A stretch of DNA of 64,000 bases from Eledone cirrhosa (Eukaryota). Positions 1 through 64,000 of this stretch are shown here, in pieces. How positions within the stretch are numbered: the first letter of the stretch is position 1; each line of letters begins with the position of its first letter. Under the pieces are notes generated by a model. That model saw only the letters and a list, made by a program, of their open reading frames with translations. It did no database searches and was not told where the DNA came from. The stretch spans positions 14,074,001 through 14,138,000 of the forward strand of contig OZ024754.1 in NCBI GenBank assembly GCA_964016885.1, read 5' to 3'. Made by a program: the position numbers and the translations under genes.

Positions 1-835
1 GGTAGGTAGGTATGTAGGTAGGTAGGTAGGTAGCTAGGTAGGTAGGTAGGTAGGTAGATAGGTAGGTGGGTAGGTAGGTAGGTAGGTAGGTAGGTAGGTA
101 GGTGGGTAGGTAGGTAGGTAGGTAGGTAGGTAGGTAGGTGGGTAGGTAGGTAGGTAGGTAGGTAGGTAGGTAGGTAGGTAGGTAGGTGGGTAGGTAGGTA
201 GGTAGGTAGGTAGGTAGGTAGGTAGGTAGGTGGTAGGTAAGTAGGTAGGTAGGTGGGTAGGTAGGTAGGTAAGTAGATAGGTAATTGGGTAGGTAGGTAG
301 GTAGGTAGGTAGGTAGGTGGGTAGGTAGGTAGCTAGGGAGGTAGGGAGGTAGGTAGGTAAGTAGATAGGTAGGTGGGTAGGTAGGTAGGTAGGGAGGTAA
401 ATAGGTAGGTAGGTAGGTAGGTAAGTAGGTAGGTACGTGGGTAGGTAGGTAGGTAGGTAGGTAGGTTGGTAGGTAGGTAAGTAGATAGGTAGGTGGGTAG
501 GTAGGTAGGTAGGTAGGTAGGTAGGTAGGTAGGTAGGTAGGTAGGTAGGTAGGTAAGTAGATAGGTAGGTGGGTAGGTAGGGAGGTAGGGAGGTAGGTAG
601 GTAGGTAGGTAGGTAAGTAGATAGGTAGGTGGGTAGGTAGGTAGGTAGGTAGGTTGGTAGGTAGGTAAGTAGATAGGTAGGTGGGTAGGTAGGTGGGTAG
701 GTAGTTAGGTAGGTAGGTAGGTAGGTAGGTAAGTAGGTAGGTAGGTGGGTAGGTAGGTAGGGAGGTAGGTAGGTAGGTAAGTAGATAGGTAAGTAGGTAG
801 GTAGGTTTGTAGGTAGGTAGGTAGGTAAGTAGATA
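1..835. repeat. Variant (GGTA)n tetranucleotide array, continues off the left edge
   Basis: GGTA units with GATA/GGTG/AGTA/GGGA variants; near-identical to 7861-8691. Confidence 0.97.
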
Positions 836-1099
836 TATTTCTTTTATTTGCCACTAGGGCATCAAAAGTGGGACAAGTACAAAGGGGGGAGTTTACACAA
901 AAAGGCGTCCTCAATAAGGAGGAGGCAATAACAAAATATAAAAATAAAATAAGATATAACAAAAAATAACATTTTTAACAAAATCCTCAATAGAGAGGAG
1001 GCGCCTTGGGGGGTCGCACACACCCCCGAAAAAAGTGTGCAACCCTTCTCCTCAGGAGCACAGAGAAGGGGTGCTCCCTTGGTCTTTCATCTTCCTCAC

Positions 1100-4000
1100 C
1101 TATAGTCTGATGTAGAGTGAAGGCCCATTCACACGGGCCATTCTCGCCACTTTCACCCATCTTTCATAGAAACGGCTGGGGTGCAGCACCTCTCTCTCCA
1201 TCCTGATCCTTCTTCCGAAATGATATCGGAAGAAACGGACCAGTTGTTGGCCAGAGAGAAAGGTGCCCGACCTCAGTCCTTTCAGACGCGTCCACCATAC
1301 AACCTCTTTCGCCATGGCTATTACGCACAGAAACACCGCCTCTGCTTCATCTTTGAAGGGGGGAGGCGGCTTGATCATTACAATAGACTCGGTGGTCAAC
1401 CGGATCGGTCCCACCCTTGACAGCAGTTGTTCGACATAGCCCCACAGATCGGCTACGCCCGAGCAGTGTACTAATGCGTGTGCAACGGTTTCCTCGTCGC
1501 ACACGCATCTGGGACAGATCTTTTTGGCGGGGTCCCTACCCGGGCGCCCGTGTCTGTAGAGCCTTTCTCGAACGGGTAAAGCCCCTCGGTAGCACTGCCA
1601 GGCCAGGGACTTCTGGAAGTTGTCCATAGGTCCCGGGCTGAATGTCCTACCGAAAAGGCTGGCCAGTTCGTCCTCCTCCATGTCTAGGGCTTCTCCGAGG
1701 GCGTCGTCGCACCTGCTGCGTACCAGCCCTCTATAGAATGTTGCGGTGGAGTCTCCACTGATAACCGGATCCGCCTGCCAGAGGGCGGTGAGCGCCTGGG
1801 CACACTCAGTGTGCCAGGCGCCCAGTTTTCTCGGTCTTTGCTTGACCCAGGATTGCAGCTCGGTGAGTGAGACGAGTCTGGGAAAGGTTCGTCTCACAAA
1901 CGAGGCCCACACCGGTTGTCCGGTGAGGAATACGTAGAGGTGCCGTAGCCTTAATGCGTGTTTACGCATCATTAGCCACGGCATCCCCAGCCCTCCTTTC
2001 GAAGGGTGTTGACAGCAGATGGATCTCCTCACCATAGGAGCCCGCCTCTTCCAAAGGAATTGGAAGAGCGCGCGCTCCATCTTGGTGAGGGTTTCCCTTG
2101 GGCAGGGCACTACGGTCAGGCGGTAGTAGATGACGGACGCTATGTGGGTGTTCGCCACCTCCGCCCGACCTTTCAGGGATAGTTTGCAACTGGCCCACTT
2201 CTGGGTCAGTGCAAACACTCTGTTCGTAACCTCCGCCCAGTTTTTCTCCACCTGGAGGTCCGGTCCGAACCAGACCCCGAGCAACTTCACCGGGCCCTCC
2301 GTCCAGCGTCCGACGACGCTATCGGAGGGCATCGGTCTGCCCCTCCACGTGCCGAGTTGCAAACCGATCGACTTGTCCCGGTTCAGCTTAGCCCCTGTGA
2401 ACTTTTCGTACTCCTCCAGTAAGGTGCCGACCGCCTCGATTTCGGAGGCCGTCGACACCATTACTGTCACGTCATCGGCGTAGGCCGACACCGCTTTCCG
2501 CAATCCCGGTTCCAAAGGGATGCCCTGCAACAACTCCAACTTCCGCAGTAGTGGCTCGAGAGTCAATACATACAGAAGGGAGGAGAGAGGGCACCCTTGT
2601 CGGATGGACCGCGCGATTTTGAACGGCTCCGAGAGGTAGCCGTTCACCTTGACCCTAGAGCAGATGCGGCTGCTGTGCATAGCAGTGATCCAGCCCCTGA
2701 AAACGGCTCCGAAGCCTGCCGCCGCTAGCACCGCATCCAGGTAACCATGGTCGACCCTATCGAACGCCTTAGATTGATCCAAGTTGATCAGAGCCCCACC
2801 AAAGCCGGGTTCGTTCCCAACCCTCTCTATGATGTATCGCATGAGGTGGAGGTTGTCATGGATGGACCTGGACGGGATAGCGCATGTCTGCGCATCTCCC
2901 ACCAGGTTGCCCACGACAAGCGCCAACCTCTTTGCTAGCACCTTGGCCAAAATCTGTAACTCTGTATTTAGCAGTGTTATGGGCCTGAAGTTACTTATTT
3001 CGTCCCCCTTGTTCTCGTCCTTCCTCACTAGCGTGACTACGCCCTTGGTCACAGTACAGGGAATTCTCCCGTTCTGTTGCCAGTTGCAGTAGACCGCCTC
3101 GAGGAGATCGGGGAACAAGTCCGGCATAGCTAGATATAATTCGTAAGGAAGACCATCGAGACCCGGGGATTTGCGTTTGCCGCATTGGCTCAGCACGTCC
3201 TCTATCTCAGCGGCCGAAATCGGCTCCTCGCAGGACTTCGCCTCCCTGTCCGAGAGGCGCGGCAGGCCGTCGAGGTATGGACCGAAGTCCACGTTCCCAA
3301 CCGGCTCCCCGCCCCTCCCGAACAGTCGGGCAAAGTGCCTTTGAAAGGCCTCACACATCTGCTTAGGCTCAAGAATCGCCCGTCCATCCAGGTCTCGCAA
3401 AGACCGGATGGTGGATTTAGTTCCACTGTTGGCCTCTGTCACGCGGGCCCAGCTAACAGCTTTGGTCCCCTCGTTCCCTAGAGCACGTATTTTACTTCGG
3501 ACAACGCAGCCTTCGTGCTTCGCGTCGAAAAACTGGCTCAAAGCCGTTCTCGACGCTAGCACTCTGGCCACGTCGCCGCTTCTAATTGCCTCTTCTACTC
3601 TATCTATTAGCTCCCTTTCCTTCCTATTCCTATCCGCAGCTAGAACCTTACTAAATTCTATCGAGACTACTCTAACCTCTCTCTTTAGAGATACCCACCA
3701 CCTGCTGTTGACGATCGCTCCAGTCAACCGTTCCTTAACTAACGTACTAATCCGATTCCTGTAGGCTCTACTTGCCGGCAAGGACAAGTTGAGCTTCCAG
3801 TAACCGGGGCCCTGTCTATGAGTTCTGTCAAGGTTGACCATGCAGGTCACTAATTTGTGGTCTGAATAGCCAACAATGCGCATTTTTGGACAACTTAAAA
3901 AGTCCTTATCCTTAATTCTAACTAAGAACCTATCTAGGTACGACCTAGATGATCCGCTACGATTTGCCCAAGTCCAGGTTGGCGCAGTCGGAAAATCTAG

Positions 4001-4537
4001 TCGATATCTATCGGCCAGGTCAAATCGACCGATTAACCCTTTGAGGCTATTACACCCCTCTCTATCGGGGCAGGCCCCTACGTAGTCCCAGCGTGCATCT
4101 AGGATACCATTCCAGTCCCCCACTAATAGCAAGGAGCGGGACGTCCCTAGAAAAGTCTCCAGACGATGGAAGAAGTCCGGCCGCATTGACCCGAAAGGGC
4201 CGTAGGCGGCTACCAACCTAAACGCTCCGCCTTTACCACTGCCAAGGTCCAGAACCACTAGTCGACCCTCCGGGTCCAAATGTACCATCTGTGTTGCGAG
4301 ACCCAGATGTTTTTGCAGCAGAACGACAACTCCACCCCCACCTCCAGGCTGACAGAGAGATGCGTGCATCTCAAAGTCATCAAAGGTGGGGGCCAGCTGT
4401 CGCACGTTGCTGATCCGGGCCTCGCAAATAACCATCACATCTATACGTTGTGACCTGAGGTCATTTAGAAGCATTGCTTGCTTCCAAGTTGAGCCCAGGC
4501 CACGCGCATTTAAACAGCCTACTCTTAGCATAGCCAT
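1100..4537 (-). CDS. Tx1-type ORF2: AP endonuclease + reverse transcriptase + C-terminal CCHC zinc finger (~1145 aa from MAMLRVGCLN)
   Basis: APE motifs LNARGL, GDWN, YLDRF, SDH; GPGYWKLN linker; RT motifs KSPGLDG, NFRPITLLN, DQSKAFDRV, RQGCPLS, AYADD; CPRC-x8-H-x4-C; uninterrupted frame. Confidence 0.96.
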   Translation of the reverse strand: MAMLRVGCLNARGLGSTWKQAMLLNDLRSQRIDVMVICEARISNVRQLAPTFDDFEMHASLCQPGGGGGVVVLLQKHLGLATQMVHLDPEGRLVVLDLGSGKGGAFRLVAAYGPFGSMRPDFFHRLETFLGTSRSLLLVGDWNGILDARWDYVGACPDREGCNSLKGLIGRFDLADRYRLDFPTAPTWTWANRSGSSRSYLDRFLVRIKDKDFLSCPKMRIVGYSDHKLVTCMVNLDRTHRQGPGYWKLNLSLPASRAYRNRISTLVKERLTGAIVNSRWWVSLKREVRVVSIEFSKVLAADRNRKERELIDRVEEAIRSGDVARVLASRTALSQFFDAKHEGCVVRSKIRALGNEGTKAVSWARVTEANSGTKSTIRSLRDLDGRAILEPKQMCEAFQRHFARLFGRGGEPVGNVDFGPYLDGLPRLSDREAKSCEEPISAAEIEDVLSQCGKRKSPGLDGLPYELYLAMPDLFPDLLEAVYCNWQQNGRIPCTVTKGVVTLVRKDENKGDEISNFRPITLLNTELQILAKVLAKRLALVVGNLVGDAQTCAIPSRSIHDNLHLMRYIIERVGNEPGFGGALINLDQSKAFDRVDHGYLDAVLAAAGFGAVFRGWITAMHSSRICSRVKVNGYLSEPFKIARSIRQGCPLSSLLYVLTLEPLLRKLELLQGIPLEPGLRKAVSAYADDVTVMVSTASEIEAVGTLLEEYEKFTGAKLNRDKSIGLQLGTWRGRPMPSDSVVGRWTEGPVKLLGVWFGPDLQVEKNWAEVTNRVFALTQKWASCKLSLKGRAEVANTHIASVIYYRLTVVPCPRETLTKMERALFQFLWKRRAPMVRRSICCQHPSKGGLGMPWLMMRKHALRLRHLYVFLTGQPVWASFVRRTFPRLVSLTELQSWVKQRPRKLGAWHTECAQALTALWQADPVISGDSTATFYRGLVRSRCDDALGEALDMEEDELASLFGRTFSPGPMDNFQKSLAWQCYRGALPVRERLYRHGRPGRDPAKKICPRCVCDEETVAHALVHCSGVADLWGYVEQLLSRVGPIRLTTESIVMIKPPPPFKDEAEAVFLCVIAMAKEVVWWTRLKGLRSGTFLSGQQLVRFFRYHFGRRIRMEREVLHPSRFYERWVKVARMARVNGPSLYIRL

Positions 4538-4561
4538 GTTGGTGGTGAAGAGAAAAGGCAC

Positions 4562-6338
4562 TTACCTCTCTGCGTCCCGGGTATCGGGCTGCACAATTTC
4601 CATTAGGGTGGGGGATGGGTTGTTGGGTGGGGTGGTGGTTTGTGGAAGTGTGGGGGCATCAGTGTGTTGTGTGGTTGGGGAGCTTGGAGTTGTGAGGGTG
4701 TTTGGGGAGGGGGTGGGATAGTTTTTTAGGAGGACTCGGTTAATGGGCCCGACGCAGGGGGGACCCACGTCCTCTTTAAAATTGTTTTTTAAAGTTTTAT
4801 AGGTGTCCTGTGGGGCCTTAATCATTTTGAGGTGGGGGAAATCCCCTGCCTGGGTGAAGTTAGGCCCTTGTGTTTTTATTAGATTGTTGTTGTACACAAT
4901 GTTTAACAGTTTTTTGTTTCTTGTATTTATGTATGTGTATGCATGTTTTTGTTTTTGTGTGGTGTTTTTTGTTTGCTGTTGTGAGCTCTTTTGTGTCAGT
5001 GTTATGTTTTGGGGAGGGGTTTTTTTCATTTGTGTGTCTGAGGTGTGTTTTCTTTTTTTTTCTTTTGATTGTGTGGAAGTGCTCCTCCTCGTCTGACGAC
5101 GAACTAGGGTCATCTTCCGCGTTGGAGGGGAGGGGTATATTTTCGGGTTGTGTTTGCGGTACGGGTGTTTTGGAAATTGTTTTTGTTTTTTGAGTGGAGG
5201 GGATGGGTTGGACATTGTTTTGTTTTGGTTTGAGCTGTGGTGGTTGTTTTTGTAGTGGTTGTTGTGGTGATTGTGTTGGTTGTGCAGTTGTTGGTGGTGT
5301 AGGCAGGATTGGGGTTTTCTTATTAAGTTGGGGACAGACAGCCCTCAGGTGACCTCTGGTTCCGCAGAGGTAACACGAGGGCCGTCTACCCTCAACGGTA
5401 ATGTTGATGAAGGTTAGATCATCCAGTATGACGCGTTCAGGGATCTGGGCGATCCTTTCGGGCCTCATTTGAACTACAAGTTCGAGGCTCGTTCCACTGA
5501 ACGCGTCACCCGATGCCTTTCCCATGGACACCAGCATGTCATCCTCCAGGTCCAGAAAACCTGTCAAAACCCACCATATGTCCATAATCGGCAGGATGGT
5601 GTGGATTTTTATTTTTTGTGTTCTTCTACCCATGTACGTAGGGTAGAAGGTGTATGCGGTGGATGTGATTGGTTTGATGGACAGTTTCACTGCTGTGTCC
5701 CTGTCCTTCATGAGAATGGATAGACTCCCGTAGAGTCTATCCTTCTGAATGAAGGTGATGTCCTTCATGACGTCTTTTAAAACCAGCTCTATCTCGCTCT
5801 GTGATGGTTGAGCTGGTTTTTTACTTTTGTTCGAGATTGTCCTAAACATGACCGTGTTTAGGAGTCTCTGGCTTTTTAGTTCCGGGGGGGAATGGATTGT
5901 GAATGAACCATTTTCCCCGTACACTATATATTTTTTCGCATCCGCCAGTAGCTCCTTCGCTTTTGTTATATCTACTGGCAGATAGTCGAGGGTTTTCCTT
6001 GTCGTCTCGGCGAAGGAGAAATTTTGTTTGTTTGTGTTGTTGTTGTCGTTGGTGGTGTTGTTGTTATCATTGTTGTTGTTGTCACCGTTATTGGTCTTGT
6101 TGTTGTTATTGTTATTGTTATTGGTGTTGTTTTCTACCGTCGCATTGTTGTTGTTGTTGCTGTTGGTTCTTTGGGTTGTTGCCATGGTAACGTCAAGTTG
6201 TCGGTTAACAGGTGGAGAGAATTCTTCCTCTGGCTGACCTATCTTCTTGACCTCTGCTACTGTGACAGTGGCAGGGGGAAGCTGTAAGTTCATCTTCCCC
6301 CTTCCTCCTTCGAATCTTGGTGAAGAAGCTTCGGCCAT
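4562..6338 (-). CDS. Tx1-type ORF1 (gag-like, CCHC zinc knuckle), probably ~590 aa with one frameshift near 4940-5060
   Basis: 492-aa ORF with poly-Asn tract and CYLCGTRGHLRAVC knuckle; overlapping 217-aa ORF in the +1 frame ends with TAA at 4562, 24 nt before the ORF2 ATG. Confidence 0.8.
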
Positions 6339-6545
6339 TTAAAAAAATATTGACTTTTCAACAAGAAAAAACTTTTTTTAACTATTTCGCCCAAAGGCGC
6401 AGAATATTTTGAGAGACTGACCAGATCAAAGTTTGACCTGGCAGTCCCTCTACAAAATGGTACAAAATTTAAAGTTATCAGACAAGAATTTCTATAGAAA
6501 TTTAAACAGAACTTACTCAGCAAGTTATACGCGTGTGTCCATCCC

Positions 6546-8691
6546 AGATAGATAATAGATAGATAGATAAGTAGGTAGGTAGGTGGGTAGGTAGGTAGGT
6601 AGGTAGGTAGGGAGGGAGGTAGGTAGGTAAGTAGGTAGGTAGGTGGGTAGGTAGGTAGATAGGTAGGGAGGTAGGTAGGTAGGTAGGTAGGGAGGGAGGT
6701 AGGTAGGTAAGTAGGTAGGTAGATGGTAGGTAAGTAGGTAGGTAGGTGGGTAGGTAGGTAGGTAGGTAGGTAGGTAGCAGGGTAGGTAGGTAGGTAGGTA
6801 GGTAGGGAGGTAGGTAGGTAGGTAGGTAGGTAAGTAGGTAGGTAGGTGGGTAGGTAGGTAGGTAGGTAGGGAGGTAGGTAGGTAGGTGGGTAGGTAGGTA
6901 GGGAGATAGGTAGGTAGGTGGGTAGGTAGGGAGGTAGGTAGGTAGGTAGGTAGGTAGGTAGGTAGGTAAGTAGGTAGGTAGGTGGTAGGTAGGGAGGTAG
7001 GTAGGTGGGTAGGTAGGGAGGTAGGTAGGTAGGTAGGTAGGTATGTAGGTAGGTAGGTAGGTAGCTAGGTAGGTAGGTAGGTAGGTAGATAGGTAGGTGG
7101 GTAGGTAGGTAGGTAGGTAGGTAGGTAGGTAGGTAGGTAGGTGGGTAGGTAGGTAGGTAGGTAGGTAGGTGGGTAGGTAGGTAGGTAGGTAGGTAGGTAG
7201 GTAGGTAGGTGGTAGGTAAGTAGGTAGGTAGGTGGGTAGGTAGGTAGGTAGGTAGGGAGGTAGGTAGGTAGGTGGGTAGGTAGGTAGGGAGATAGGTAGG
7301 TAGGTGGGTAGGTAGGGAGGTAGGTAGGTAGGTAGGTAGGTAGGTAGGTAGGTAGGTAAGTAGGTAGGTAGGTGGTAGGTAGGGAGGTAGGTAGGTGGGT
7401 AGGTAGGGAGGTAGGTAGGTAGGTAGGTAGGTAGGTAGGTATGTAGGTAGGTAGGTAGGTAGGTAGGTAGGTAGATAGGTAGGTGGGTAGGTAGGTAGGT
7501 AGGTAGGTAGGTAGGTAGGTGGGTAGGTAGGTAGGTAGGTAGGTAGGTAGGTAGGTGGGTAGGTAGGTAGGTAGGTAGGTAGGTAGGTAGGTAGGTAGGT
7601 AGGTGGGTAGGTAGGTAGGTAGGTAGGTAGGTAGGTAGGTGGTAGGTAAGTAGGTAGGTAGGTGGGTAGGTAGGTAGGTAAGTAGATAGGTAATTGGGTA
7701 GGTAGGTAGGTAGGTAGGTAGGTAGGTGGGTAGGTAGGTAGCTAGGGAGGTAGGGAGGTAGGTAGGTAAGTAGATAGGTAGGTGGGTAGGTAGGTAGGTA
7801 GGGAGGTAAATAGGTAGGTAGGTAGGTAGGTAAGTAGGTAGGTACGTGGGTAGGTAGGTAGGTAGGTAGGTATGTAGGTAGGTAGGTAGGTAGCTAGGTA
7901 GGTAGGTAGGTAGGTAGATAGGTAGGTGGGTAGGTAGGTAGGTAGGTAGGTAGGTAGGTAGGTGGGTAGGTAGGTAGGTAGGTAGGTAGGTAGGTAGGTG
8001 GGTAGGTAGGTAGGTAGGTAGGTAGGTAGGTAGGTAGGTAGGTAGGTAGGTGGGTAGGTAGGTAGGTAGGTAGGTAGGTAGGTAGGTAGGTGGTAGGTAA
8101 GTAGGTAGGTAGGTGGGTAGGTAGGTAGGTAAGTAGATAGGTAATTGGGTAGGTAGGTAGGTAGGTAGGTAGGTAGGTGGGTAGGTAGGTAGCTAGGGAG
8201 GTAGGGAGGTAGGTAGGTAAGTAGATAGGTAGGTGGGTAGGTAGGTAGGTAGGGAGGTAAATAGGTAGGTAGGTAGGTAGGTAAGTAGGTAGGTACGTGG
8301 GTAGGTAGGTAGGTAGGTAGGTAGGTTGGTAGGTAGGTAAGTAGATAGGTAGGTGGGTAGGTAGGTAGGTAGGTAGGTAGGTAGGTAGGTAGGTAGGTAG
8401 GTAGGTAAGTAGATAGGTAGGTGGGTAGGTAGGGAGGTAGGGAGGTAGGTAGGTAGGTAGGTAGGTAAGTAGATAGGTAGGTGGGTAGGTAGGTAGGTAG
8501 GTAGGTTGGTAGGTAGGTAAGTAGATAGGTAGGTGGGTAGGTAGGTGGGTAGGTAGTTAGGTAGGTAGGTAGGTAGGTAGGTAGGTAAGTAGGTAGGTAG
8601 GTGGGTAGGTAGGTAGGGAGGTAGGTAGGTAGGTAAGTAGATAGGTAAGTAGGTAGGTAGGTTTGTAGGTAGGTAGGTAGGTAAGTAGATA
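6546..8691. repeat. (GATA)n patch (6546-6570) followed by 2.1-kb variant (GGTA)n array with internal higher-order duplications
   Basis: Landmark variants recur, e.g. gtaattgggt at ~7690 and 8141, aggtacgtgg at ~7840 and 8291. Confidence 0.97.
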
Positions 8692-9481
8692 TATTTCTTT
8701 TATTTGCCACTAGGGCATCAAAAGTGGGACAAGTACAAAGGGGGGAGTTTACACAAAAAGGCGTCCTCAATAAGGAGAAGGCAATAACAAAATATAAAAA
8801 TAAAATAAGATATAACAAAAAATAAAATTTTTAACAAAATCCTCAATAGAGAGGAGGCGCCTTGGGGGGTCGCACACACCCCCGAAAAAAGTGTGCAACC
8901 CTTCTCCTCAGGAGCACAGAGAAGGGGTGCTCCCTTGGTCTTTCATCTTCCTCACCTATAGTCTGATGTAGAGTGAAGGCCCATTCACACGGGCCATTCT
9001 CGCCACTTTCACCCATCTTTCATAGAAACGGCTGGGGTGCAGCACCTCTCTCTCCATCCTGATCCTTCTTCCGAAATGATATCGGAAGAAACGGACCAGT
9101 TGTTGGCCAGAGAGAAAGGTGCCCGACCTCAGTCCTTTCAGACGCGTCCACCATACAACCTCTTTCGCCATGGCTATTACGCACAGAAACACCGCCTCTG
9201 CTTCATCTTTGAAGGGGGGAGGCGGCTTGATCATTACAATAGACTCGGTGGTCAACCGGATCGGTCCCACCCTTGACAGCAGTTGTTCGACATAGCCCCA
9301 CAGATCGGCTACGCCCGAGCAGTGTACTAATGCGTGTGCAACGGTTTCCTCGTCGCACACGCATCTGGGACAGATCTTTTTGGCGGGGTCCCTACCCGGG
9401 CGCCCGTGTCTGTAGAGCCTTTCTCGAACGGGTAAAGCCCCTCGGTAGCACTGCCAGGCCAGGGACTTCTGGAAGTTGTCC
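8692..9481 (-). mobile_element. 5'-truncated copy (790 bp) of the Tx1 element
   Basis: Matches 836-1625 with about 2 differences seen; 42-bp direct repeat 8650-8691 / 9487-9528 containing the rare gtttgt variant. Confidence 0.95.
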
Positions 9482-10116: not shown

Positions 10117-46882
<36,766 letters not shown>

Positions 46883-48430: not shown

Positions 48431-49374
48431 GCTGATGCCAACAATACAAAGCTACTGTACGGCTTATTACGAGCTGCCTATGGTCCTTATTCTTCTCCAA
48501 TTTCACCTCTGAGATCTTTTAATATCAACAAATTGTTTAGAGACCCAAAGGGTATCCTTTTAAAATGAAGGGGTCACATCAGTGAACCTTTGAATAGACC
48601 TTCTCATTTGGAAGTGGCTGTAAAACAACTTGTAGAAGATCACGCCATCTAGCGTCGACTGCCTACACAGTCGATTAACTGCCCTTAGTTCTGACATCAG
48701 TGGCTGAGACAATAACACTTGGATAATAACACTTGAAGACAATAGGACATGTGATAATCACGTAGGGGTCACCACTTTAGGCGGGAAGTGGTCGTCAGTC
48801 ATCCCGTCCTATTGGTTATGGTTTACTGGCACATTTCAAACAAAGAATAAAGACATACCTCAACATAATGGAAATTCCGTAGGGCAGGATGGTATTTGTG
48901 CTGAGGTACTGATATGTAGAAGTTGAAACATTCTTTGACTTCTTACAAACCAGATATGTTAGGTTTGGGTAGAAGAAAGTGGTCCCCAAGACTAGAAAGA
49001 TGCATTGATGTTGATGCTTTATAAAGGAAAAGGTGGAAAGGATGATTGTGGTAATCACCGGGGGATATGCCACAAAGCATGTTGTCAGACGCTCTACCGA
49101 TACTGCCAATCCACCGAGAAAGTTAATTTTATTAAATATCTCCAAATTTTTGATTATTTTCCAAATTATTTGAAAATTAGAAGTATAGTAATAAAAAGAT
49201 TAAGGTGTTCATATTGAACTAAAAGCCTTCCATCACAATTAATGAAGCCTGCTAAACTGAAAAAGAGTAAGGAGAGGAGTGAGATGGGTACAACCAGGTT
49301 TAACAATCCCCTAGAAACAGTGTATGTCAATGCAGTGCCACTACAACTTGCCCAGGAATAATGGGACCAGACAT

Positions 49375-49578
49375 CATCATCATCATCGATTAACGTCTAT
49401 CTTCCACGTTAGCATGGGTTAGATGAGTTTGTCCCATTTAAAGGCAAGTTGGGTCTGGTGACTATGTCTCACTCATATAGGAGAGTTTCTAGCTGTTTTT
49501 TTACGGCTGGATGACCTTCCTAACACCAACCACATTTACAGTGTGGGTTGGGTGTTTTGTGGTACCAGTATAATATAC

Positions 49579-49610
<32 letters not shown>

Positions 49611-49925
49611 AGTTGTGAAAGAAACTGGGTATAAGAGGGATAAGTTGTGGTGTGCAGGAGAGAAGGCTGAGATGGTATGGCCATGTGATGCACATGTAGG
49701 ATGACCGCTGAGTAAAGAAGCGCCAAGAAATCCCAGTAGAAGGAAGATGCAGAGGAGATAGACCACATAAAACATGGGCGGAGGTTGTGAGAGCAGACCT
49801 CAGATCACTGAAACTCACCGAGGAGATGACGAAGGACCGTGACAAGTGGAGAGATGCTGTGCTGAATAGGACCCGTCCAACCCTTGCAAGCAGGGAAAAG
49901 CGGATGTAAAATGATGATGATGATG
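49375..49925. mobile_element. Two back-to-back RTE-family 3' ends (minus 49375-49565; plus 49612-49925)
   Basis: VQERRLRWYGHVMHM...DRPHKTWAEVVRADL; (ATG)n tails. Confidence 0.8.
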
Positions 49926-50343
49926 ATATACATATACATACATGCACATATCATGATAATGATATACACATATATATATATTTGCATGCATATACATATA
50001 CTATATATGTAATATACATACACATATCATACATATACATACACACTTCATATATATATACATAAATACACACATATAATTAGAGCTTCAACACAAACAA
50101 GGACAAATTTGACAATCACAAAAATAAACCACAATTTAGGAATAATTGAGATAATAAGCAAAAAACGATCGTGTTTCATTTATTAAGTTGCATTGTAATT
50201 ATCTCCTAGACTACAGGAAATATTCTAAACGAGTTTCTCGTACATACATATATACATTTGTACATACATACATATATGCATTTGTACATACATATATACA
50301 TTTGTACATACATACATATATACATTTGTACATACATACATAT

Positions 50344-50950
50344 ATGGTGGCTGCCAACTCGTTTTCGAGTACGGCCACTACTTTATATCCATGTAGGAGA
50401 ACCCCTACTGATGCGCTGAACGAGTGTGACTTTTTAGTCCAGCCAGCGACTTGAAAACTCTGGTACAAACACTACACTTGTGACAATTATTGACACATAG
50501 TGCTGGGCCCATGGTACCATGTGACGACAAATGCAGAGATCTCCAGATATAAAGCAATGCCTGTGCCGTGAAGCTTTTATAGTGAGCAAAGGCACTGCAC
50601 AAGGCCAGTCCCACTCTCTTAACCAAGATGATATTTACCAAAAAGAAGAATAAGTCAACATCATTGGATACCATCAGGGTTGCAGGTGTTATATCAGAGT
50701 TTTCCTTCTCCTAGAATTCTGCCTTGACAAAGGCTAAGGATTCATCTCTCCCAGTGATTTTGGATGGCCATTGACTCTTAAGAGCTCCTTTGCCCTTTGA
50801 CAGGTTTTGTTTTTAGTCCTGCAGGATATCCAAAGTCACCCTCCTCACCAAGAAACCCTGGTGGGGTTGCCAGTTTAGTCGCCAATGACCCGACCATGAG
50901 ACAGGTTGTACTGGGATACATGTTACCAGTAGCACCAACTGGTGACCTGA
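50344..50950 (-). mobile_element. Bipartite non-autonomous RTE derivative (5'UTR + 3' end, (TATG)n tail), copy 1
   Basis: RTE 5' motif GGAGAAGGAAAACTCTGA; terminal C2H2 CSVCTRVFKSLAGLKSHTRSAH; no RT sequence between them. Confidence 0.75.
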
Positions 50951-51147
50951 CATACATATATACATTTGTACATACATACATATATACATTTGTACATACA
51001 TACATATATACATTTGTACATATATACATATACACATTTGTACATACATATATACATTTGTACATACATACATATATAAATACATACATTTGTACATACA
51101 TACATACATTTGTACATACTTACATACATACATTTGTACATACATAC

Positions 51148-52584
51148 ATGCCTGTCCTAACACCAACGTTTGGAATACTCAATTGGACGATAGACAAAAT
51201 CCGAGCAGTTGATGTTGGAACTCGAAAAATACTGAACAACACCGGAAACTTCCACATCAACGGTGACATAGACCGCCTTTACTTGAAACGTAGGCAGGGA
51301 GGCAGAGGCCTAACATCAGTCCAGACAACATTTGAATGTCGCATCATATCTCTCCGACAACATCTACGAACCTCGAAGCGTAGGAGCCCGTTTCTCGAGC
51401 AAGTCTATCTGCATGAAACAGATAAGATCATGAGAGTTGGGAAGGAACTCCTTGAGAGATATTCCCTGTGTGATAATCAAAAAATCACACCCAGGGATGT
51501 CGCTCAGCAGTATCGCAGTGAATCCATGGATGAAAAACTGCATGCCTATCAGCAAAAAATCATGCATTCATATGTTGCCAGGAAGCTCCAGAGTGAGTGT
51601 AATATAGATAAGGAAAGTAGTCTATCTTGGACCAACAACTGCTATATTGGCTCCCACTTTGAAGGATATGCCTTTGCAATCCAAGAATAGGAGATTAGCA
51701 CGAAATACCTGATTCACAAAAGAGATAGGGATGCAGGCAAAACACCTAGATGTGATAACAGGTGCAGACTCTGCAGAACTAACATCGAAGATGTCACCCA
51801 TGTCATCAGCCGCTGTCCAAATATGTCATCGCGGTACTATCTACCTATGAGGCATGATGTAGTGGCCAAAACACTGTACAATGCAATTCGTAAAAAAGAT
51901 AGCCCCGATAATAAACACATTAAAAGCTACAACAATGTGGAAGACATCCATGTACATAATATGAAAGAGTATTGGTGGAATGTTCCAGTAAAAACCCCAA
52001 TAAAATGCAGGCATAACAGACCAGATATTATGATATGGGACAGGGAGAAGAAAACATGCACAGTAGTGGAAATTAGCTGCCCAGCAGATGCCAATATAAT
52101 ATCAAAGATTAGTGAAAAGGAGAATATTTATGCAGAACTGATGAGAAATCTGCAGATACTCCACCCTGATTACACCTTCAGATTTATGCCTGTGATTATT
52201 GGGGCACTGGGGTATGTTAGTAACTGCCTCAATACAAATCTTGAGAAGCTAGGCTTCACAGGAACAGAAAGAACACAACTAGTTAGGAAACTACAAGTAC
52301 AATCCATTAATGGAACAGTAAAAATATGTAAAACATTCCAAAAATGTTGCATCTAATAACTGCATATACACATGTACAGATACAAAGCATATACACATGC
52401 ACACATACAACTCAAAACATCCACATCCACACATACAATAACATCCATATCTACACATGCATGCATACATACATATCTACCTAGTTGATGTTGTGTAAAT
52501 TCCAATGGGAGAGTCTTGTGTCTATGTTAGAAACCGACTCTCTCTCTATTGGTAAAACTTTGTGAAATTATAAAACCAGAAGAA
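51148..52584 (+). mobile_element. R4/Dong-type RLE LINE family A, 5'-truncated
   Basis: GDIDRLYLKRRQGGRG, CRLC-x8-H-x4-C, RHD, RPDI, EISCP; ends AAAACCAGAAGAA|CATACATA. Confidence 0.9.
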
Positions 52585-52677
52585 CATACATACATTTGTA
52601 CATATATACATACATTTGTACATACATACATATATACATTTGTACATACATACATATATATATTTGTACATACATAC

Positions 52678-52987
52678 ATGGTGGCTGCCAACTCGTTTTC
52701 GAGTACGGCCACTACTTTATATCCATGTAGGAGAACCCCTACCGAAGAGCTGAACGAGTGTGACTTTTTAGTCCAGCCAGCGACTTGAAAACTCTGGTAC
52801 AAACACTACACTTGTGACAATTATTGACACATAGTGCTGGGCCCATGGTACCATGTGAGGACAAGTGCAGAGAGATCTCCAGATATAAAGCAATGCCTGT
52901 GCCGTGAAGCTTTTATAGTGAGCAAAAGCACTGCACAAAGCCAGTCCCACTCTCTTAACCAAGATGATATTTACCAAAAAGAAGAAC
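52678..52987 (-). mobile_element. RTE derivative copy 2, 5'-truncated
   Basis: Matches 50344-50650; 36-bp direct repeat at 52578-52613 / 52980-53015. Confidence 0.85.
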
Positions 52988-53015
52988 ATACATACATTTG
53001 TACATATATACATAC

Positions 53016-56000
53016 TAACGGAATTGAGTGATACTACAAGTACAGCCCTTGTAGACAACCACCCCACCTCCACTGACAGACAGAGAGAATGGCCAGCTAA
53101 ATCTAACAGTGAACAGCTCACCAACAATTTTGCTGAAATCCATCCCACTTCCACTGAAGAACAGCGAGAAAGGTCAGCTGACTCTAGTAGTAATTGTCAC
53201 CACATCAACAACGAGGCTGAAATTCATGACTCTACTGTACAAACAGAACACCAAAAACTTGTGGACACCTTACAAGTGATATGGAACGATATGTTTCAAG
53301 AGATACACAGCCTTAATGTGAGTGACAGACCATACAACACTAGAGTCAGTAAAGAACCCACTAAATTGGAATTGGAAGCGGTGAACGAAATAGCTGGCAA
53401 TTATCTGAAGGCTATACGATCTAAAGGTGTAGAAACGACATTTGAAACGCTTAATATTTTGTTAATATGTTTCAGCTGTCACATTGCTATCATATAACAC
53501 ACATCTAAAACCACGCAATCAAGATACAAACAAAAAGCCTGAACCAGCGTGGATGCGAAATTTAAAAAGCAAAATTTTGTCCCTGAGACGAAGTATCTCA
53601 CACATCGCAGTCGTTATGAAATGCAACATAGAGAGCAACTTCACACGACACCAGGAAGACCTAAAAAAAAAAGTTAGAGAGACGATTTGGAGATACAAAA
53701 TTTAAAACTTTAAACTCCAAATTACATCAGTTGAAACAACAACTCACAGCTACAACAGAAAGACTAAAATATAAGTCAACAGCACATAAATGACAAGTGC
53801 TAAATAGATTGTTTGCCAGAGATCCTAAATCAGTTTATCGCAGCTTCGGTGGCAGAAGCTCAATCTCTGTAAATGACACCCCTTCAAAAGAACAGGTTGA
53901 GAGCTACTGGAGACCTGTATGGGAAACGGATGACGGATTCAACAGACAAACTAATTGGCTAAAAGAACTGGAACAGGACTACTGCCAACATGTCCAGACA
54001 AAACAATATGACATAGATGAGTCAATACTGGAAACAGCTCTACAGAAAATGTCGAATAGGAAATCACCAGGCCCAGATCTCATTACAGGATAGTGGTTGA
54101 AGAATTTCACTTTCTATCGGCAAGATCTCATACGGATGTTTACAGAAACCATTAAAGGCACACAAGAACTGCCCAAATGGTTATCAACTGCCACTACTCT
54201 CCTCATTCCCCAAAATAGCCAAACCACCCTTGCTAAAAATTACCGCCCAATAGCCTGCCAAAACATCATGTATAAATTATATACTGGGTGCCTTAACCTG
54301 TTCTTACAGGATCACTGTGCTACCAACAACATCATAACACCTGAGTGGGCTGGTGGAAAGAGGGAGGTGTGGTGTTGCATAGATCACCTACTCACTAATA
54401 AAATGATTCAAGAAAAAACAACAAAGAATCGCAGAAACATGACTGTGGTGTGGCTGGACTATCAAAAAGCATTTGATAGTGTACCTCATGGGTGGATTGT
54501 TAAGGCTTTACAGTTAGCCAAAGTCCCACAACCACTGGTAGCTGCTGTTGAACGTCTGGCCAAGAACTGGTACACCAATTTGGTCCTTAGAGGTGAGAAG
54601 GAGCAAGTTAAGACTGATACGATACATTACCAGAAGGGCATCTTTCAGGGTGATAGCTTGTCAGTGCTACTCTTCGTTCTCTCACTAAATCCACTATCTT
54701 ACCTACTCAGGAAACAAGGTGGACAAAGAAGTGGGTCCAGAAGTATCTCCCATCTTTTCTTTGTTGATGACCTGAAGTTGTATGGGCCAAATATCAATGA
54801 CATCAAGAAACAATTGGACCTCATTACACAATTTTCAACAGACATCAAAATGAAATTTGGTGAGTCCAAGTGTGCTGCATATTTGTCAGTAAAACGTGGA
54901 AGAGCTGTGCCCTGCTCTGGAAATCTAGAGATGAACGGCCTGACAATACAACCTCTACAGTCAGGTGACAACTACAGATATCTTGGACAGGATGAGAATG
55001 TCAGATATGATGGACCCATAAATAAGGAGAGAACCAGAACTGAATACCTCAGAAGAGTAAAGAAAATATGGTCATCAGAACTGTCAGCATACAACAAATA
55101 CATTGCTCACAATACTTATGCTGTGCCAATTCTAACGCCAACATTTGGCCTACTGAACTGGTCATTGCAAGAACTAAGTGAGATGGATGTTAGAACTCGA
55201 AAACTTCTCAGTGTTACTGGGAACTTTAACATCAATGGTGATGTGGATAGGCTATACTTCTCAAGCAAGGAAAGTGGCCGGGGTCTAAAATCCATATTAA
55301 CATCATATGAGACCCGGATAGTAACACTGAAGCAACATCTTCAACAGAGGAAAAAGGTTGGCAACATCTTGCCCAGGTTTATGAGCATGAAAAAAGAAAT
55401 ATCATTAGAATAGCGACTGATCTGGAGGAGAAATATGGAATAAAGCCTGATATAAATCTCTCACCCACAGAAACCGGAAGATCCTATTCTATGTTCAAAC
55501 AAGATGAAAAAATTGACCAATTTACAGAAAAAGTTGTGCATGGATACTTGAGACGTAAAACACAGCATAGAGGGGATAAACCACTCAAAAAACCTGGCAT
55601 GGAGTTCCAATAAGTTTATGACATCACACCTTGAGGGATATCTCTATGCAATACAGGAACAAGGACTCCCTACCAAATATCTGCTGCACAAAAGGGGAGG
55701 GCCATCAGCTGACAATAAATGTAGGCTATGTAAAACAAAGATCGAGGATGTAAGCCACATTGTTGTCAGCTGCGAAAGAATGTCATCTCGCTACTACCTC
55801 CCCATGAGACACAATGGGATAGCTAGAACCATCTGGAACGCACTTCGGAAAACAAAATTAACAACAAATGAGGAAGAATATATTGAGACAGATGGCACTA
55901 AGGAATACTGGTGGAACCTGAAAATAAAAACTGCCACCAAATTAAAGCACAACTGGCCTGATATTGTTGTTTGTACCACACATTGAAAACGTGTTCTGTT

Positions 56001-56373
56001 GTGGAGATCAGCTGCCCACTTGATGTAAACGTTGTCAGAAAAATACAGGAGAAGGGGGACATCTACGGACCATTGATGAGGAGTTTACAAATCCAGTATC
56101 CAAGATACACCTTTAGCTTCATACCCATCATTATTGGAGCTACGGGTTATATACCAACCCGCTTGGACCAAAGTATGACTGAACTTGGATTTGCGGACAA
56201 AGAGCGCAGCTCCCTAATTCATAGTCTGCAAATGGTTGTGATAGCTGGCACCTTCAAATTTTGCAAAACATTCTTGCGATTCAAGGGATGATAATTTCTT
56301 TTCTTTTACAACCTTGCAACCGGGAAGGTGGCCGGTAAAGAAAAATATACTCGAAATTAAGAGGAAGAGATAA
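53016..56373 (+). mobile_element. R4/Dong-type RLE LINE family B, near full length, disabled by stops and frameshifts
   Basis: KSPGPD, NYRPIAC, DYQKAFDSV, GIFQGDSLS, FFVDD, CRLC..H..C, RHN, PDIV, EISCP; ends GAGGAAGAGATAA|CATACATA. Confidence 0.93.
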
Positions 56374-56619
56374 CATACATACATACATTTGTACATACAT
56401 ACATACATACATTTGTACATACATATATACATTTATACATACATATATACATTTTTACATACATACATATATACATTTGTACATACATACATATATACAT
56501 TTATACATACATACATATATACATTTGTACATACATATATACATTTGTAAATACATACATACATGTGTACATACATACATACATACATTTGTACATACAT
56601 ACATTTGTACATACATACA

Positions 56620-57667
56620 TCCATGGATGAAAAACTGCATGCCTATCAGCAAAAAATCATGCATGGATATGTTGCCAGGAAGCTCCAGAGTGAGAGTAAT
56701 ATAGATAAGGAAAGTAGTCTATCTTGGACCAACAACTGCTATATTGGCTCCCACTTTGAAGGATACGCTTTTGTAATCCAAGAACAGGAGAGTAGCACGA
56801 AATACCTGATTCACAAAAGAGATAGGGATGCAGGCAAAACACCTAGATGTGATAACAGATGCAGACTCTGCAGAACTAACATCGAAGATGTCACCCATGT
56901 CATCAGCCGCTGTCCAAATATGTCATCGCGGTACTATCTACCTATGAGGCATGATGTAATGGCCAAAACACTGTACAATGCAATTCGTAAAAAAGATAGC
57001 CCCGATAATAAACACATTAAAAGCTACAACAATGAGGAAGACATCCATGTACATAATATGAAAGAGTATTGGTGGAATGTTCCAGTAAAAACCCCAATAA
57101 AATGCAGGCATAACAGACCAGATATTATGATATAGGACAGGGAGAAGAAAACATGCACAGTAGTGGAAATTAGCTGCCCAGCAGATGCCAATATAATATC
57201 AAAGATTAGTGAAAAGGAGAATATTTATGCAGAACTGATGAGAAATCTGCAGATACTCCACCTTCAGATTTATGCCTGTGATTATTGGGGCACTGGGATA
57301 TGTTAGTAACTGCCTCAATACAAATCTTGAGAAGCTAGGCTTCACAGGAGCTGAAAGAACACAACTAGTTGGGAAACTACAAGTACAATCCATTAATGGA
57401 ACAGTAAAAGTATGTAAAACATTCCAAAAATTTTGCATCTAATAACTGCATATACACATGTACAGATACAAAGCATATGCACATGCACACATACAACTCA
57501 AAACATATACATCCACACATACAATAACATCCATATCTACACATCCATGCATACATACATATCTACCTAGTTGATGTGTAAATTCCAATGAGAGAGTCTT
57601 GTGTCTATGTTAGAAACCGACTCACTCTCTATTGGTAAAACTTTGTGAAATTATAAAACCAGAAGAA
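56620..57667 (+). mobile_element. R4/Dong family A, second 5'-truncated copy
   Basis: High identity to ~51523-52584. Confidence 0.92.
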
Positions 57668-57772
57668 CAGACATACATTTGTAGATACAAACATATATAC
57701 ATTTGTACATACATACATACATACATACATACATACATACATACATACATTTGTACATACATACATACATAT

Positions 57773-58302
57773 ATGGTGGCTACCAACTCGTTTTCGAGTA
57801 TGGCCACTACTTTATATCCATGTAGGAGAACCCCTACCGATGCGCTGAACGAGAGTGACTTTTTAGTCCAGCCAGCGACTTGAAAACTCTGGTACAAACA
57901 CTAGACTTGTGACAATTATTGTCACATAGTGCTGGGCCCATGGTACCATGTGACGACAAGTGCAGAGAGATCTCCAGATATAAAGCAATGCCTGTGCCGT
58001 GAAGCTTTTATAGTGAGCAAAGGCACTGCACAAGGCCAGTCCCACTCTCTTAACAAAGATGATATTTACCAAAAAGAAGAACAAGTCAACATCATTGGAT
58101 ACCATCAGGGTTGCAGGTGTTATATATTCTCCTAGAATTCTGCCTTGACAAAGGCTAAGGGGTCATCTCTCCCGGTGATTTTGGATGGCCATTGACTCTT
58201 AAGAGCTCCGTTGCCCTTTGACAGGTTTTGTTTTTAGTCCTGCAGGATGTGCAAAGTCACCCTCCTCACCAAGAAACATTGGTGGGGTTGCCAGTTTAGT
58301 CG
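57773..58302 (-). mobile_element. RTE derivative copy 3
   Basis: Matches 50344-50881. Confidence 0.88.
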
Positions 58303-58432
58303 ATACATATATATATATACATATATACATACATACATATATACATTTGTACATTCATACATTCATACATGCATACATATATACATACGTACATACATAC
58401 ATAGATACATACATACTACATATATACATACA

Positions 58433-58521
58433 TAAATTCCAATGAGAAAGTCGTGTATCTGTGTTAGAGAGCGATTCTCTCTTTATTGGCAAAGAGTTGT
58501 GAAATTATAAAACCAGAAGAA
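58433..58521 (+). mobile_element. R4/Dong family A-like 3' tip
   Basis: AAATTCCAATGAG...GTGAAATTATAAAACCAGAAGAA|CATA. Confidence 0.85.
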
Positions 58522-58575
58522 CATACATACATATATACATACATACATACATACATACATACATACATACATACA

Positions 58576-58608
<33 letters not shown>

Positions 58609-58937
58609 CAACTAGAAATTGATTGACATATATATATATATCTAAAATACATATGAAACAATCACATGGAATAATTTGTAAAAGTGTGTGAGCAGACATA
58701 GCTATGTAGGTAACTAATTAATGTTTAACTAGAACTTTAAAAATAGATATCTTATAAATGGATTAAAGTGGATGTATATATACATATACGTATATATATA
58801 CACATATATACATGCATATATATATACATATATACATACGTACATATATGCATATGTACATACATACAGGCAGACATATATATATGTACACATATACGCA
58901 TATACATATGTATGCACAAACATACATACACACATAC

Positions 58938-59207
58938 ATGATGGCTGCAAACTCTGCCGAGAGTATTGCAATCGCTTGTCAGATTCAGATGTGTGACACT
59001 CGCATATGGCTTTTCAGGCCTGCTAGAGACTTGCACTCCTTCACACACTGACGACAACTATGGATCTCCCTGGCTTCAGGTCCTGCATCAGGTTGCCTGT
59101 GAACCCTCACAACACCGTGGAGATCATAGTTCACTGGTTCTCTTTGAACATGGCTGCAACTGTGGCTCCTGAGTCCAGATTTGCCCAAGCCAATCATTCC
59201 ATACTCG
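58938..59207 (-). mobile_element. Related RTE 3' end with (TATG)n tail
   Basis: C2H2 CRQCVKECKSLAGLKSHMRVSH. Confidence 0.75.
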
Positions 59208-59229
59208 TACATATGTATATATATACATT

Positions 59230-59970
59230 CATACATACATATATAAAGACACATAGGCATACATACATATATAAAAACAGAAAACATACGTACATACATA
59301 CACACAATACATATATACAAACATACATACATACATACATATATACATACATATATAAAGACACACACAGACACTTAGGCATACATACATATATAAAAAC
59401 AGAAAACATACGTACATACATACACACAATACATATATACAAACATACATACATACATATATACATACATATATAAAGACACACACAGACACTTAGGCAT
59501 ACATACATATATAAAAACAGAAATCATACGTACATACATACACACAATACATATATACAAACATACATACATACATATATACATACATATATAAAGACAC
59601 ACACAGACACTTAGGCATACATACATATATAAAAACAGAAATCATACGTACATACATACACACAATACATATATACAAACATACATACATACATATATAC
59701 ATACATATATATAGACACACACAGACACTTAGGCATACATACATATATAAAAACAGAAAACATACGTACATACACACACACAATACATATATACATACAT
59801 ACATATATACATATATACATACATATATAAAGACACACACAGACACTTAGGCATACATACATATATAAAAACAGAAAACATACGTACATACACACACACA
59901 ATACATATATACATACATACATATATACATACATATATATAGACACACACAGACACTTAGACATACATAT
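59230..59970. repeat. ~118-bp CATA-rich tandem repeat; resumes at 60520-61010
   Basis: Recurring AAAAACAGAAAACATACG...GACACTTAGG. Confidence 0.9.
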
Positions 59971-61312
59971 GTAGCAGGAGTTGCCTCCCTTGTTGTGACA
60001 CTCACATCCCCAATAGATTAACGCTCTCTAGACAGGAAGTAGAACCCTTTCTGTAACTTCCGGTCAGAACCCTATAAAACTAATAACTGTTTCTACTTTT
60101 GGCACAAGCCCAGCAATTACCCAGTGCATTACTGGTACTTTATTTTATCGACCCCGTAAGGATGAAAGGCAAAGTTTAACCTCGGCGGGATTTGAACTCA
60201 GATCATACAGGGAGGTAACTCTATGCTTCAAAGCATGGCGTTCGACCCTCTACCGATACTGCCAATCCACCGCCTTTAAAACTAATAACGTTAAACTCCC
60301 TATCTCTCATTTGCCTTTCCGGCGCCTGGCCTTCGCCAGGCGTCTTCTGCCGGGCGCGTTCACCTGGCAACCAAAACGGTAACTAATAACTTTGCTTCAT
60401 TCTTTCATCTATTCATTGACATGTCAACTATACTGTTCTATATATCCACAAATTGTTAATTAAATATTATACACACAAATCACGTCTCATGTTATACTTA
60501 TACAACCCAGTATATTGTTATACATACATATATAAAAGCAGAAAACATACGTACATACATACACACAATACATACATATATACAAACATACATACATACA
60601 TATATACATATATAAAGACACTCACAGACACATAGGCATACATACATATATAAAAACAGAAAAGATACGTACATACATACACACAATACATACATATATA
60701 CATACATATATACATACATATATACATACATATATAAAGACACACACAGACATTTAGGCATACATACATATATAAAAACAGAAAACATACGTACATACAT
60801 ACACACAATACATACATATATACAAACATACATATATACATATATACATACATATATAAAGACACACATATACAAACATACATACATATATACATACATA
60901 CATATATAAAGGCACTCACAGACGCATAGGCATACATACATATATAAAGACACACACAGATACATAGACATACATAAATATATAAAAACAGAAAACATAC
61001 ATACATACATGCTAATTTATATACACTAGCAGAAAAACTGCCCTCGCAGGCGGTTTTCTGCTAGCATATGTAGTGTGCATATTGGTTTTATATGCAAATA
61101 TATATGCTTATAGATATGATACGTAAATTGAAAAGTAAATTGACAATATCTTCTTCTTTGCCCACTTATTTATGAGAATATCGTGTGTGTGTGTGGGGGG
61201 GGGGGGGGGGTCAGGCTACTGAATATCGAGACGTTTGGGGAAGTCAGGCTACTGACTGCGAGATTCTTATCTTCACTGACGGCTCGCCTAACAGAGGTAA
61301 CTGGTGAAGCTC

Positions 61313-63662: not shown

Positions 63663-64000
63663 TCATCATCATTTCATTTTACGTCCGCTTTTCCCTGCTT
63701 GCAAGGGTGGGACGGGAACTGATTCTGGCTTGATTTCTACAGCTGGATGCCCTTCCTAACACCATCCTCATTTACAGTGTGGGCTGGATGCTATTTTGAC
63801 TGGATGGCTCCCTGTTTGACCTGCAGCGCCTGACGGCCAAGACAAGGACCGTGCAGAGGATCGTCCTGGAGGCCCTCATGGCCCACAGGGAGTCTGACCT
63901 CTAAGTCATCGTCAACAAGTTCGTGGAAGCCTCCTGTATCTTCGGTCTCACAATTAGCCTTGGCAAGACTGAGGTCCTGTTCCAGCCTGCACCTGCCTCC
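63663..64000. mobile_element. SINE 3' end (-) joined to RTE RT fragment (+)
   Basis: LFDLQRLTAKTR...FGLTISLGKTEVLFQPAP. Confidence 0.75.

Follow-up and report, generated by a model that had tools for sequence, protein, structure and literature searches.

Organization of the locus

The window analyzed here, a stretch of 64,000 nucleotides from Eledone cirrhosa (contig OZ024754.1, positions 14,074,001 to 14,138,000 of the forward strand; coordinates below are those of the window), contains a hub of retroelements set in a CATA-based repeat. Four pieces of long interspersed nuclear elements (LINEs) of the restriction-like endonuclease (RLE) type, here named R4, lie on the plus strand and four RTE-like pieces lie on the minus strand; the insertion target of the R4 pieces is the subject of this report. 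Along the plus strand the order is RTE-d1(-), R4-A1(+), RTE-d2(-), R4-B(+), R4-A2(+), RTE-d3(-), an R4-A-like tip(+) and RTE'(-). This order and these orientations had been given in an initial annotation of the DNA and are borne out by self-comparison, open reading frames (ORFs) and alignments, by which all eight inserts were placed.

The hub begins with a 24-bp composite CATA minisatellite (spacer S0, 50240-50345; spacers are given on the plus strand), the final 11 bases of which recur at 50951-50961 as the target duplication of RTE-d1, lengths of 35 and 59 also fitting by periodicity. RTE-d1 (50346-50950, minus) is a non-autonomous element of ~600 bp with a C2H2 finger remnant at its end, and is the longest of the three RTE-d copies. 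Beyond S1 (50951-51149), a composite minisatellite lying head to head between two 5' ends and hence the tail of neither neighbor, R4-A1 (51150-52584, plus) is a 5'-truncated Dong/R4-like LINE with thumb, CCHC knuckle and PD..E..K nuclease motif and an in-frame stop at 51688. Composite minisatellite (S2, 52585-52679) connects its 3' end to that of RTE-d2 (52680-52986, minus), a 5'-truncated copy adjoined by an 11-12-bp duplication and bracketed by an exact repeat of 36 bp (52578-52613 = 52980-53015); its 5' junction shows microhomology of 7-9 bp. RTE-d2 and R4-B stand head to head across the 27 bp of S3 (52987-53013). R4-B (53014/16-56373, plus; start ambiguous by 2 bases) retains reverse transcriptase (RT), CCHC and RLE regions and is near full-length, yet 5'-truncated and degenerate.

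S4 (56374-56620), composite minisatellite which no RTE end adjoins, is followed by R4-A2 (56621-57667, plus), 5'-truncated and 2.3% divergent from R4-A1. The final 10 bases of S5 (57668-57774) recur at 58303-58312 as the target duplication of RTE-d3 (57775-58302, minus), which is also 5'-truncated. S6 (58303-58433) is CATA/TA repeat, part of which could be an untranslated region (UTR) tract of the tip, an 88-bp 3' end (58434-58521, plus) whose last 25 bases are identical to R4-A. The earlier label of R4-A tip is correct as to kinship; however, the piece belongs to another subfamily, being 14.8% from both R4-A copies. Near-pure (CATA)21 follows (58522-58605, plus), and RTE' (58941-59209, minus) is the 3' fragment of a second family with apurinic/apyrimidinic endonuclease (APE), RT and C-terminal C2H2 fingers. 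A 118-bp CATA-rich minisatellite (59208-59969, plus) flanks its 5' end with the same strand polarity as in the hub.

The repeat filling five of eight profiled spacers, as well as that between R4-A1 and RTE-d2, is a 20-24-bp composite minisatellite of CATA runs, and near-pure (CATA)n is confined, among the spacers, to 58522-58605. The polarity of this repeat is pronounced: the sequence CATACATAC occurs 98 times on the plus strand and once on the minus strand, with a single plus-strand copy outside 50.2-61 kb. The statement that every junction lies in CATA/TACA repeat thus needs amending, since the R4 junctions are CATA-based but the spacers are mostly composite minisatellite, and 164 bp of non-repeat DNA (58606-58769) lie between the tip and RTE'. 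The 3' UTR of R4-A1 contains a 120-bp CA/CATA-rich tract, a possible further source of repeat, and a predicted hairpin. The prediction reaches z=-2.7 in R4-A1 alone and is weak in R4-A2, the tip and R4-B (z -1.2 to -1.6), and a conserved 3' hairpin is therefore not claimed.

Affiliation of the R4 families

The RT domain of R4-B matches RVT_1 (E=7e-24) and has R2 proteins as its best matches in PDB (E=6e-23); the C-terminus of R4-A gave no significant match in PDB. Both families carry a CRLC-X8-H-X4-C knuckle and then a PD..E..K nuclease motif, the R4/Dong motif being described as a CX2CX7-8HX4C knuckle that has a conserved R and precedes a PD..(D/E)..K core (PMC5678591, cited here, like the other papers given by PMC number, from the available parts of its text). 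No APE domain was matched in six full-length relatives of the R4 families. Elements of the R4/Dong clade begin with a diverged SANT/Myb-like domain and lack zinc fingers at the N-terminus. The relatives share with a Bombyx protein an N-terminal motif, for which Pfam gives no Myb and before which the window copies are truncated, and they align end to end, this motif included, with XP_037866951, a B. mori protein that may or may not be Dong itself. In their single ORF, which combines RT, a CCHC knuckle and an RLE at the C-terminus, and in the microsatellite on both sides, the elements resemble Dong of Bombyx mori, DongAg, DongBg and Darwinula Dong1/2 as far as these are described in the available text.

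The nearest named relative of R4-B is a protein of Argonauta hians (P0127), which has 65% identity over the RT piece and is its sister at 100/100. Of 315 metagenome loci confirmed in a search with an alignment of 18 full-length homologs, the best 80 were used, and 8 genome loci were added. Tetranucleotide arrays were screened in all 88 loci and flanks were examined in 34, chosen for reach of the C-terminus or high identity. Four or more TAA-type units are found shortly past the ORF in 15 of the 34, none of these in the octopod branch. The five most similar loci among the matches listed (L001-L004 and L008) group with the window families, and none of them is TAA-ended. Instead, (CTTA)n lies on the sense strand at all four junctions visible, in three metagenome relatives: the 5' junction of L001 (1-60), both junctions of L002 (1-100 and 4822-4871) and the 3' junction of L004 (4651-4694). 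The 3' flanks of L002 and L004 both begin CTTAC, shortly past an AATAAA.

At 100/100, an RT tree of 35 rows sets R4-B, P0127 and the five loci apart from the TAA-labelled loci, 12 in all, and from the Bombyx protein; one intended outgroup was left out for its short alignment, and the other was placed, weakly supported, within the TAA side. A C-terminal tree of 64 rows, in which R4-A is included, gives the same split (SH-aLRT 100). As references both trees contained TAA-ended loci and a Bombyx protein; none of their rows bears the name Dong, R4, HERO or NeSL. The window families and the TAA-ended ones have ~30% identity.

Several further observations concern Dong/R4-like sequences. L001, L002 and L004 are full-length R4-like elements with 3' regions of ~1 kb; their apparently intact ORFs would make them candidates for assays. 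A rearranged, TAA-lineage-like Dong relic within the window (15250-16390, minus) adjoins (TAA)15 (16392-16437) on its 5' side, not CATA, and a short, heavily deleted R4-like relic (24630-24900, plus) is without CATA flanks. The genome-contig search gave 8 distant loci, probably eukaryotic contamination; L082, L085 and L086 (contigs of metagenome-assembled genomes) and L083 are eukaryotic Dong-like LINEs within prokaryote genome records, probably through assembly contamination. The exact R4-A 3' pattern had 0 matches in metagenome and viral contigs, an alignment search of the viral contigs confirmed 0 of 360 candidates, and the portion searched of the octopus transcriptome supplements of PMC9115989 gave 0 matches, the remaining files of which may bear on the claim. 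A word search of sequencing runs with R4-A listed 13 runs, 9 of them, in 5 studies, holding part of R4-A, and 3 with at least half of the words (one sample); it was not used as evidence.

Insertion register and probable target of R4-A and R4-B

The four R4 3' junctions (52584, 56373, 57667 and 58521) all read AA|CA(T/G)AC, and all four 5' junctions can be placed directly after CATACAT, that of R4-B with an ambiguity of 2 bases. At three of the copies a suffix-prefix match of 3 bases is exact, and in the fourth it has one mismatch, an apparent 3-bp end duplication (CAT, modulo 4). In-register positions make up 119 of 885 inside the six spacers measured. Even for copies bound to land inside spacers, the chance that four of four are in register is p ~3e-4, or 2e-3 with R4-A1 and R4-A2 counted once. 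The common register of the 3' ends, already noted in the initial annotation, thus exceeds chance, and it is shared by two families of only 46% amino-acid identity. Furthermore, because S1 and S3 are each bounded by a 5' end on either side, the CATA repeat present there is target rather than tail. These features, together with the (CTTA)n flanks of the relatives, argue that R4-A and R4-B are probably CATA-specific Dong/R4 families that insert at a fixed step of the repeat. Dong in the narrow sense inserts into (TAA)n, as is the case for none of the four R4 copies, all of which lie in CATA repeat.

A number of points weigh against this interpretation and the mechanism proposed below. All R4 copies of the window come from one 9-kb hub, self-comparison having revealed no R4-A or R4-B copy in the other 55 kb, and placement of the 5' junctions is blurred by microhomology of 1-2 bases. 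The (CTTA)n evidence consists of four junctions on three contigs with similar accession numbers, possibly from one host and all ending at the repeat, and assemblies tend to break at simple repeats. The arrays of L002 and L004 lie ~1.07 kb past the ORF, and no flank is visible in L003 or L008. The C-terminal tree was built by a quick method and carries no bootstrap values. Lastly, RTE-d1 and RTE-d3 join the repeat as ATATATG and not as perfect TATG, such that tail pairing is partial at best.

The restriction to one hub would also be expected had the R4 elements no real specificity for CATA and merely accumulated at a tolerated, repeat-rich spot, with short microhomology setting the register. 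Passive accumulation has been proposed for Drosophila Waldo (PMC3812793), and Dong-R4 elements of O. vulgaris amount to 92.7 Mb in 51 families (PMC13282606 supplement), a load more like that of a weakly specific element. However, the R4 3' ends (AGAAGAA and AGAGATAA) have at most one base in common with the repeat, the register is held at both ends in two families, relatives in (CTTA)n show the same CTTAC-type start, and the other 55 kb are without copies though rich in other repeats. Such a passive sink is accordingly considered improbable.

Specificity for CATA would add to a known range of microsatellite targets. In Bombyx, Anopheles and Biomphalaria the target of Dong is (TAA)n (PMC3812793; (TAA)n also PMC7998251), and insertion into microsatellites is described for Dong-like R4 elements (PMC7998251, PMC3812793). 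Unlike Dong, for which (TAA)n is published, the window families lie in CATA-based repeat and their relatives in (CTTA)n, on a separate branch. The closest precedent for the repeat itself is Waldo of the R1 clade (WaldoAg1, WaldoAg2 and WaldoFs1), whose ACAY microsatellite targets include (ACAT)n, equivalent to (CATA)n (PMC3812793); Waldo is of the APE type, whereas the nuclease here is a C-terminal RLE, and the target would therefore be convergent. Togen and HERO are likewise RLE LINEs with microsatellite targets, such as (TG)n for Togen (PMC4640811), but are set apart by description as other clades with other repeat units. In the literature searched, available in part and without the Repbase notes or Kojima and Fujiwara (2004), neither CATA nor CTTA is given as a Dong/R4 target, although such a target may have been reported before.

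Both families are likely members of a Dong sublineage whose targets are C(A/T)TA tetranucleotide repeats rather than (TAA)n. There is perhaps an even chance that this sublineage is undescribed and has exchanged (TAA)n for C(A/T)TA targets, its cut register being conserved, with two or more octopod families using (CATA)n and relatives of another host using (CTTA)n.

The RTE-like copies and the origin of the repeat

The C2H2 ends of RTE' (E about 1e-7 to 1e-9) and, weakly, of RTE-d (about 1e-4 for a search of window size) match proteins that have longer relatives in which Exo_endo_phos, RVT_1 and C2H2 share a single ORF. These APE-RT relatives were reached from zinc-finger-rich matches of a profile-free representative search; the 5' 350 bases of RTE-d had no protein match, and a direct homolog search with RTE' found nothing. 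The C-terminal motifs of the relatives, which we take to be those of RTE/BovB, fit the architecture of O. vulgaris RTE-2_OV. In common with the relatives of RTE-d and RTE', the latter combines endonuclease, RT and C2H2 finger with a microsatellite 3' UTR (PMC9115989). The pieces, themselves lacking RT, are accordingly labelled as presumptive RTE derivatives from this single-ORF architecture, the likeness to RTE-2_OV and these motifs rather than from a tree.

Exact duplications adjoin every RTE-d copy, of 11-12 bp at RTE-d1, 11-12 bp at RTE-d2 and 10 bp at RTE-d3, as against 10-19 bases at random spacer positions in 13-15% of draws for each copy; no exact duplication was found at RTE'. RTE insertions add simple sequence repeats and make duplications of 6-12 bp (PMC2887409), a range within which the 10-12 bp found here fall. 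The repeat beyond each RTE-d copy is fully accounted for by target and duplication. The (TATG) tails that the initial annotation had ascribed to RTE-d are thus indistinguishable from a stretch of target with its duplication of 10-12 bp; a net tail need not be assumed, and the copies read as insertions into existing repeat.

This bears directly on a second alternative, the feedback loop of the initial annotation, in which tails of RTE or its derivatives create or extend the CATA repeat that R4 and RTE elements then target. A TATG tail would supply repeat of the right polarity, and both the simple sequence repeats added by RTE insertions and the microsatellite 3' UTR of RTE-2_OV make such a contribution conceivable. 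The 36-bp repeat around RTE-d2 is unique and includes the last 7 bases of R4-A1. If it is a long target duplication, RTE-d2 may be later than R4-A1 and have 66 extra repeat bases on its 3' side; if it is due to chance or later deletion, no order follows. On the other hand, the duplications at all three RTE-d copies leave no net tail, S1 and S4 hold composite repeat without any RTE 3' end, no RTE target duplication spanning an R4 copy was found in the hub, and the only order that may be recorded has R4-A1 first and RTE-d2 second. With neither a net tail nor supporting nesting, the loop is unsupported here and seems unlikely. Dating of the nesting therefore yields at most this one junction. R4-A1 carries one stop, R4-A2 one stop and an 11-bp deletion, and R4-B about 5 frame changes and 2 in-frame stops, densities (~1.5 per kb in R4-A and ~2.1 per kb in R4-B) that are too close for an age order.

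A third alternative, local segmental duplication of an R4-A plus RTE-d unit with later deletions, is very unlikely: 51522-52988 does align to 56619-58083 at 95% over 1479 bases, the divergence of the R4-A pair (24/1049) and of RTE-d2/RTE-d3 (11/307) is not significantly different (Fisher p=0.22, which alone leaves room for an early duplication) and the 36-bp repeat could reflect deletion between 9-bp microhomologies, but R4-A and RTE-d are each truncated differently at the 5' end in the two units, RTE-d2 and RTE-d3 carry different target duplications and are not the closest pair (3.6%, 11/307, as against 2.3%, 7/305, for RTE-d1/RTE-d2 and 2.6%, 8/305, for RTE-d1/RTE-d3), and such a duplication could not have produced R4-B, the tip or RTE', each of which is present once. 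The hub likely grew by independent insertions into a CATA-based array.

Orientation and proposed mechanism

Orientation in the hub is split perfectly by family, with R4 on the plus strand and RTE-like copies on the minus strand (p=0.008), as previously described, but the strict alternation that was also described is at chance level, since 7 or more runs occur in 8 of the 70 orderings of four and four. The opposite orientation is likely explained by priming of each family on a different strand during target-primed reverse transcription. In the mechanism proposed for CATA-specific R4 families, the restriction-like nuclease would nick the TATG strand and the 3' end of the element would join ahead of CATAC; a second cut would leave the apparent 3-bp duplication, and the element would as a result always read on the CATA strand. 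In RTE elements, pairing between 3' tail and target is known. For the RTE derivative, the CATA strand is the likely site of priming, with a nick after ...AT and a duplication of 10-12 bp, probably assisted by pairing of a short AUG/UAUG end with the primer, and the derivative would consequently always read on the TATG strand. Opposite orientation would then result from the choice of strand rather than from a programme of alternation. As each insertion would split the array and leave two usable halves, the site could remain a sink.

Other elements in the window

Several other retroelements are found outside the hub. A full-length, two-ORF L1/Tx1-like LINE (833-6546, minus; ORF2 at 1100-4561 with APE, RT and zf-RVT) and a second, 5'-truncated copy (8689-9481, minus) occupy one long array of (CCTA)n/(TAGG)n and share their 3' junction, forming a second tetranucleotide hub, possibly of a (CCTA)n-specific Tx1-type family. 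An ORF of 409 amino acids (33266-34495, minus) encodes an RT remnant and a PHD finger; short 3' fragments related to it occur at 49372-49927 and at other places. An abundant SINE-like (short interspersed nuclear element-like) 200-bp repeat with a (TAA)n-type tail is found at 60081-60288, with copies at 15047, 25995, 26442-27300, 32056, 40395 and 42143, one of which has turned into a 98-bp tandem array (26679-27253). Degenerate RT fragments of APE-RT (RTE-like) elements occur at 48431-49070 and 63785-63994.

Implications for Dong/R4 elements in octopuses

Octopuses carry Dong-R4 and RTE elements in abundance, with recent activity of both (PMC13282606, PMC8967140, PMC9115989; Dong-R4 also PMC10294476). 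In O. vulgaris, five Dong-R4 families account for 1129 recent insertions, among the most active LINE groups (PMC13282606 Table 1). The octopus papers, in their available text, give no insertion target for these elements, O. bimaculoides Dong included, with which the window families were compared by description and not by sequence. A nest of target-specific LINEs stacked in a repeat is in itself a known kind of structure. A CATA target, if true, would predict landing sites and explain strand-polarised nests of transposable elements, and short-read insertion calls in such repeats would be liable to be missed. The series of TAA, CTTA and CATA targets would allow the contributions of the Myb-like and RLE domains to specificity to be mapped; retargeting inside one RLE clade is directly testable and bears on the engineering of site-specific retrotransposons. 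For the octopuses, such a target may explain where the very abundant Dong-R4 copies go.

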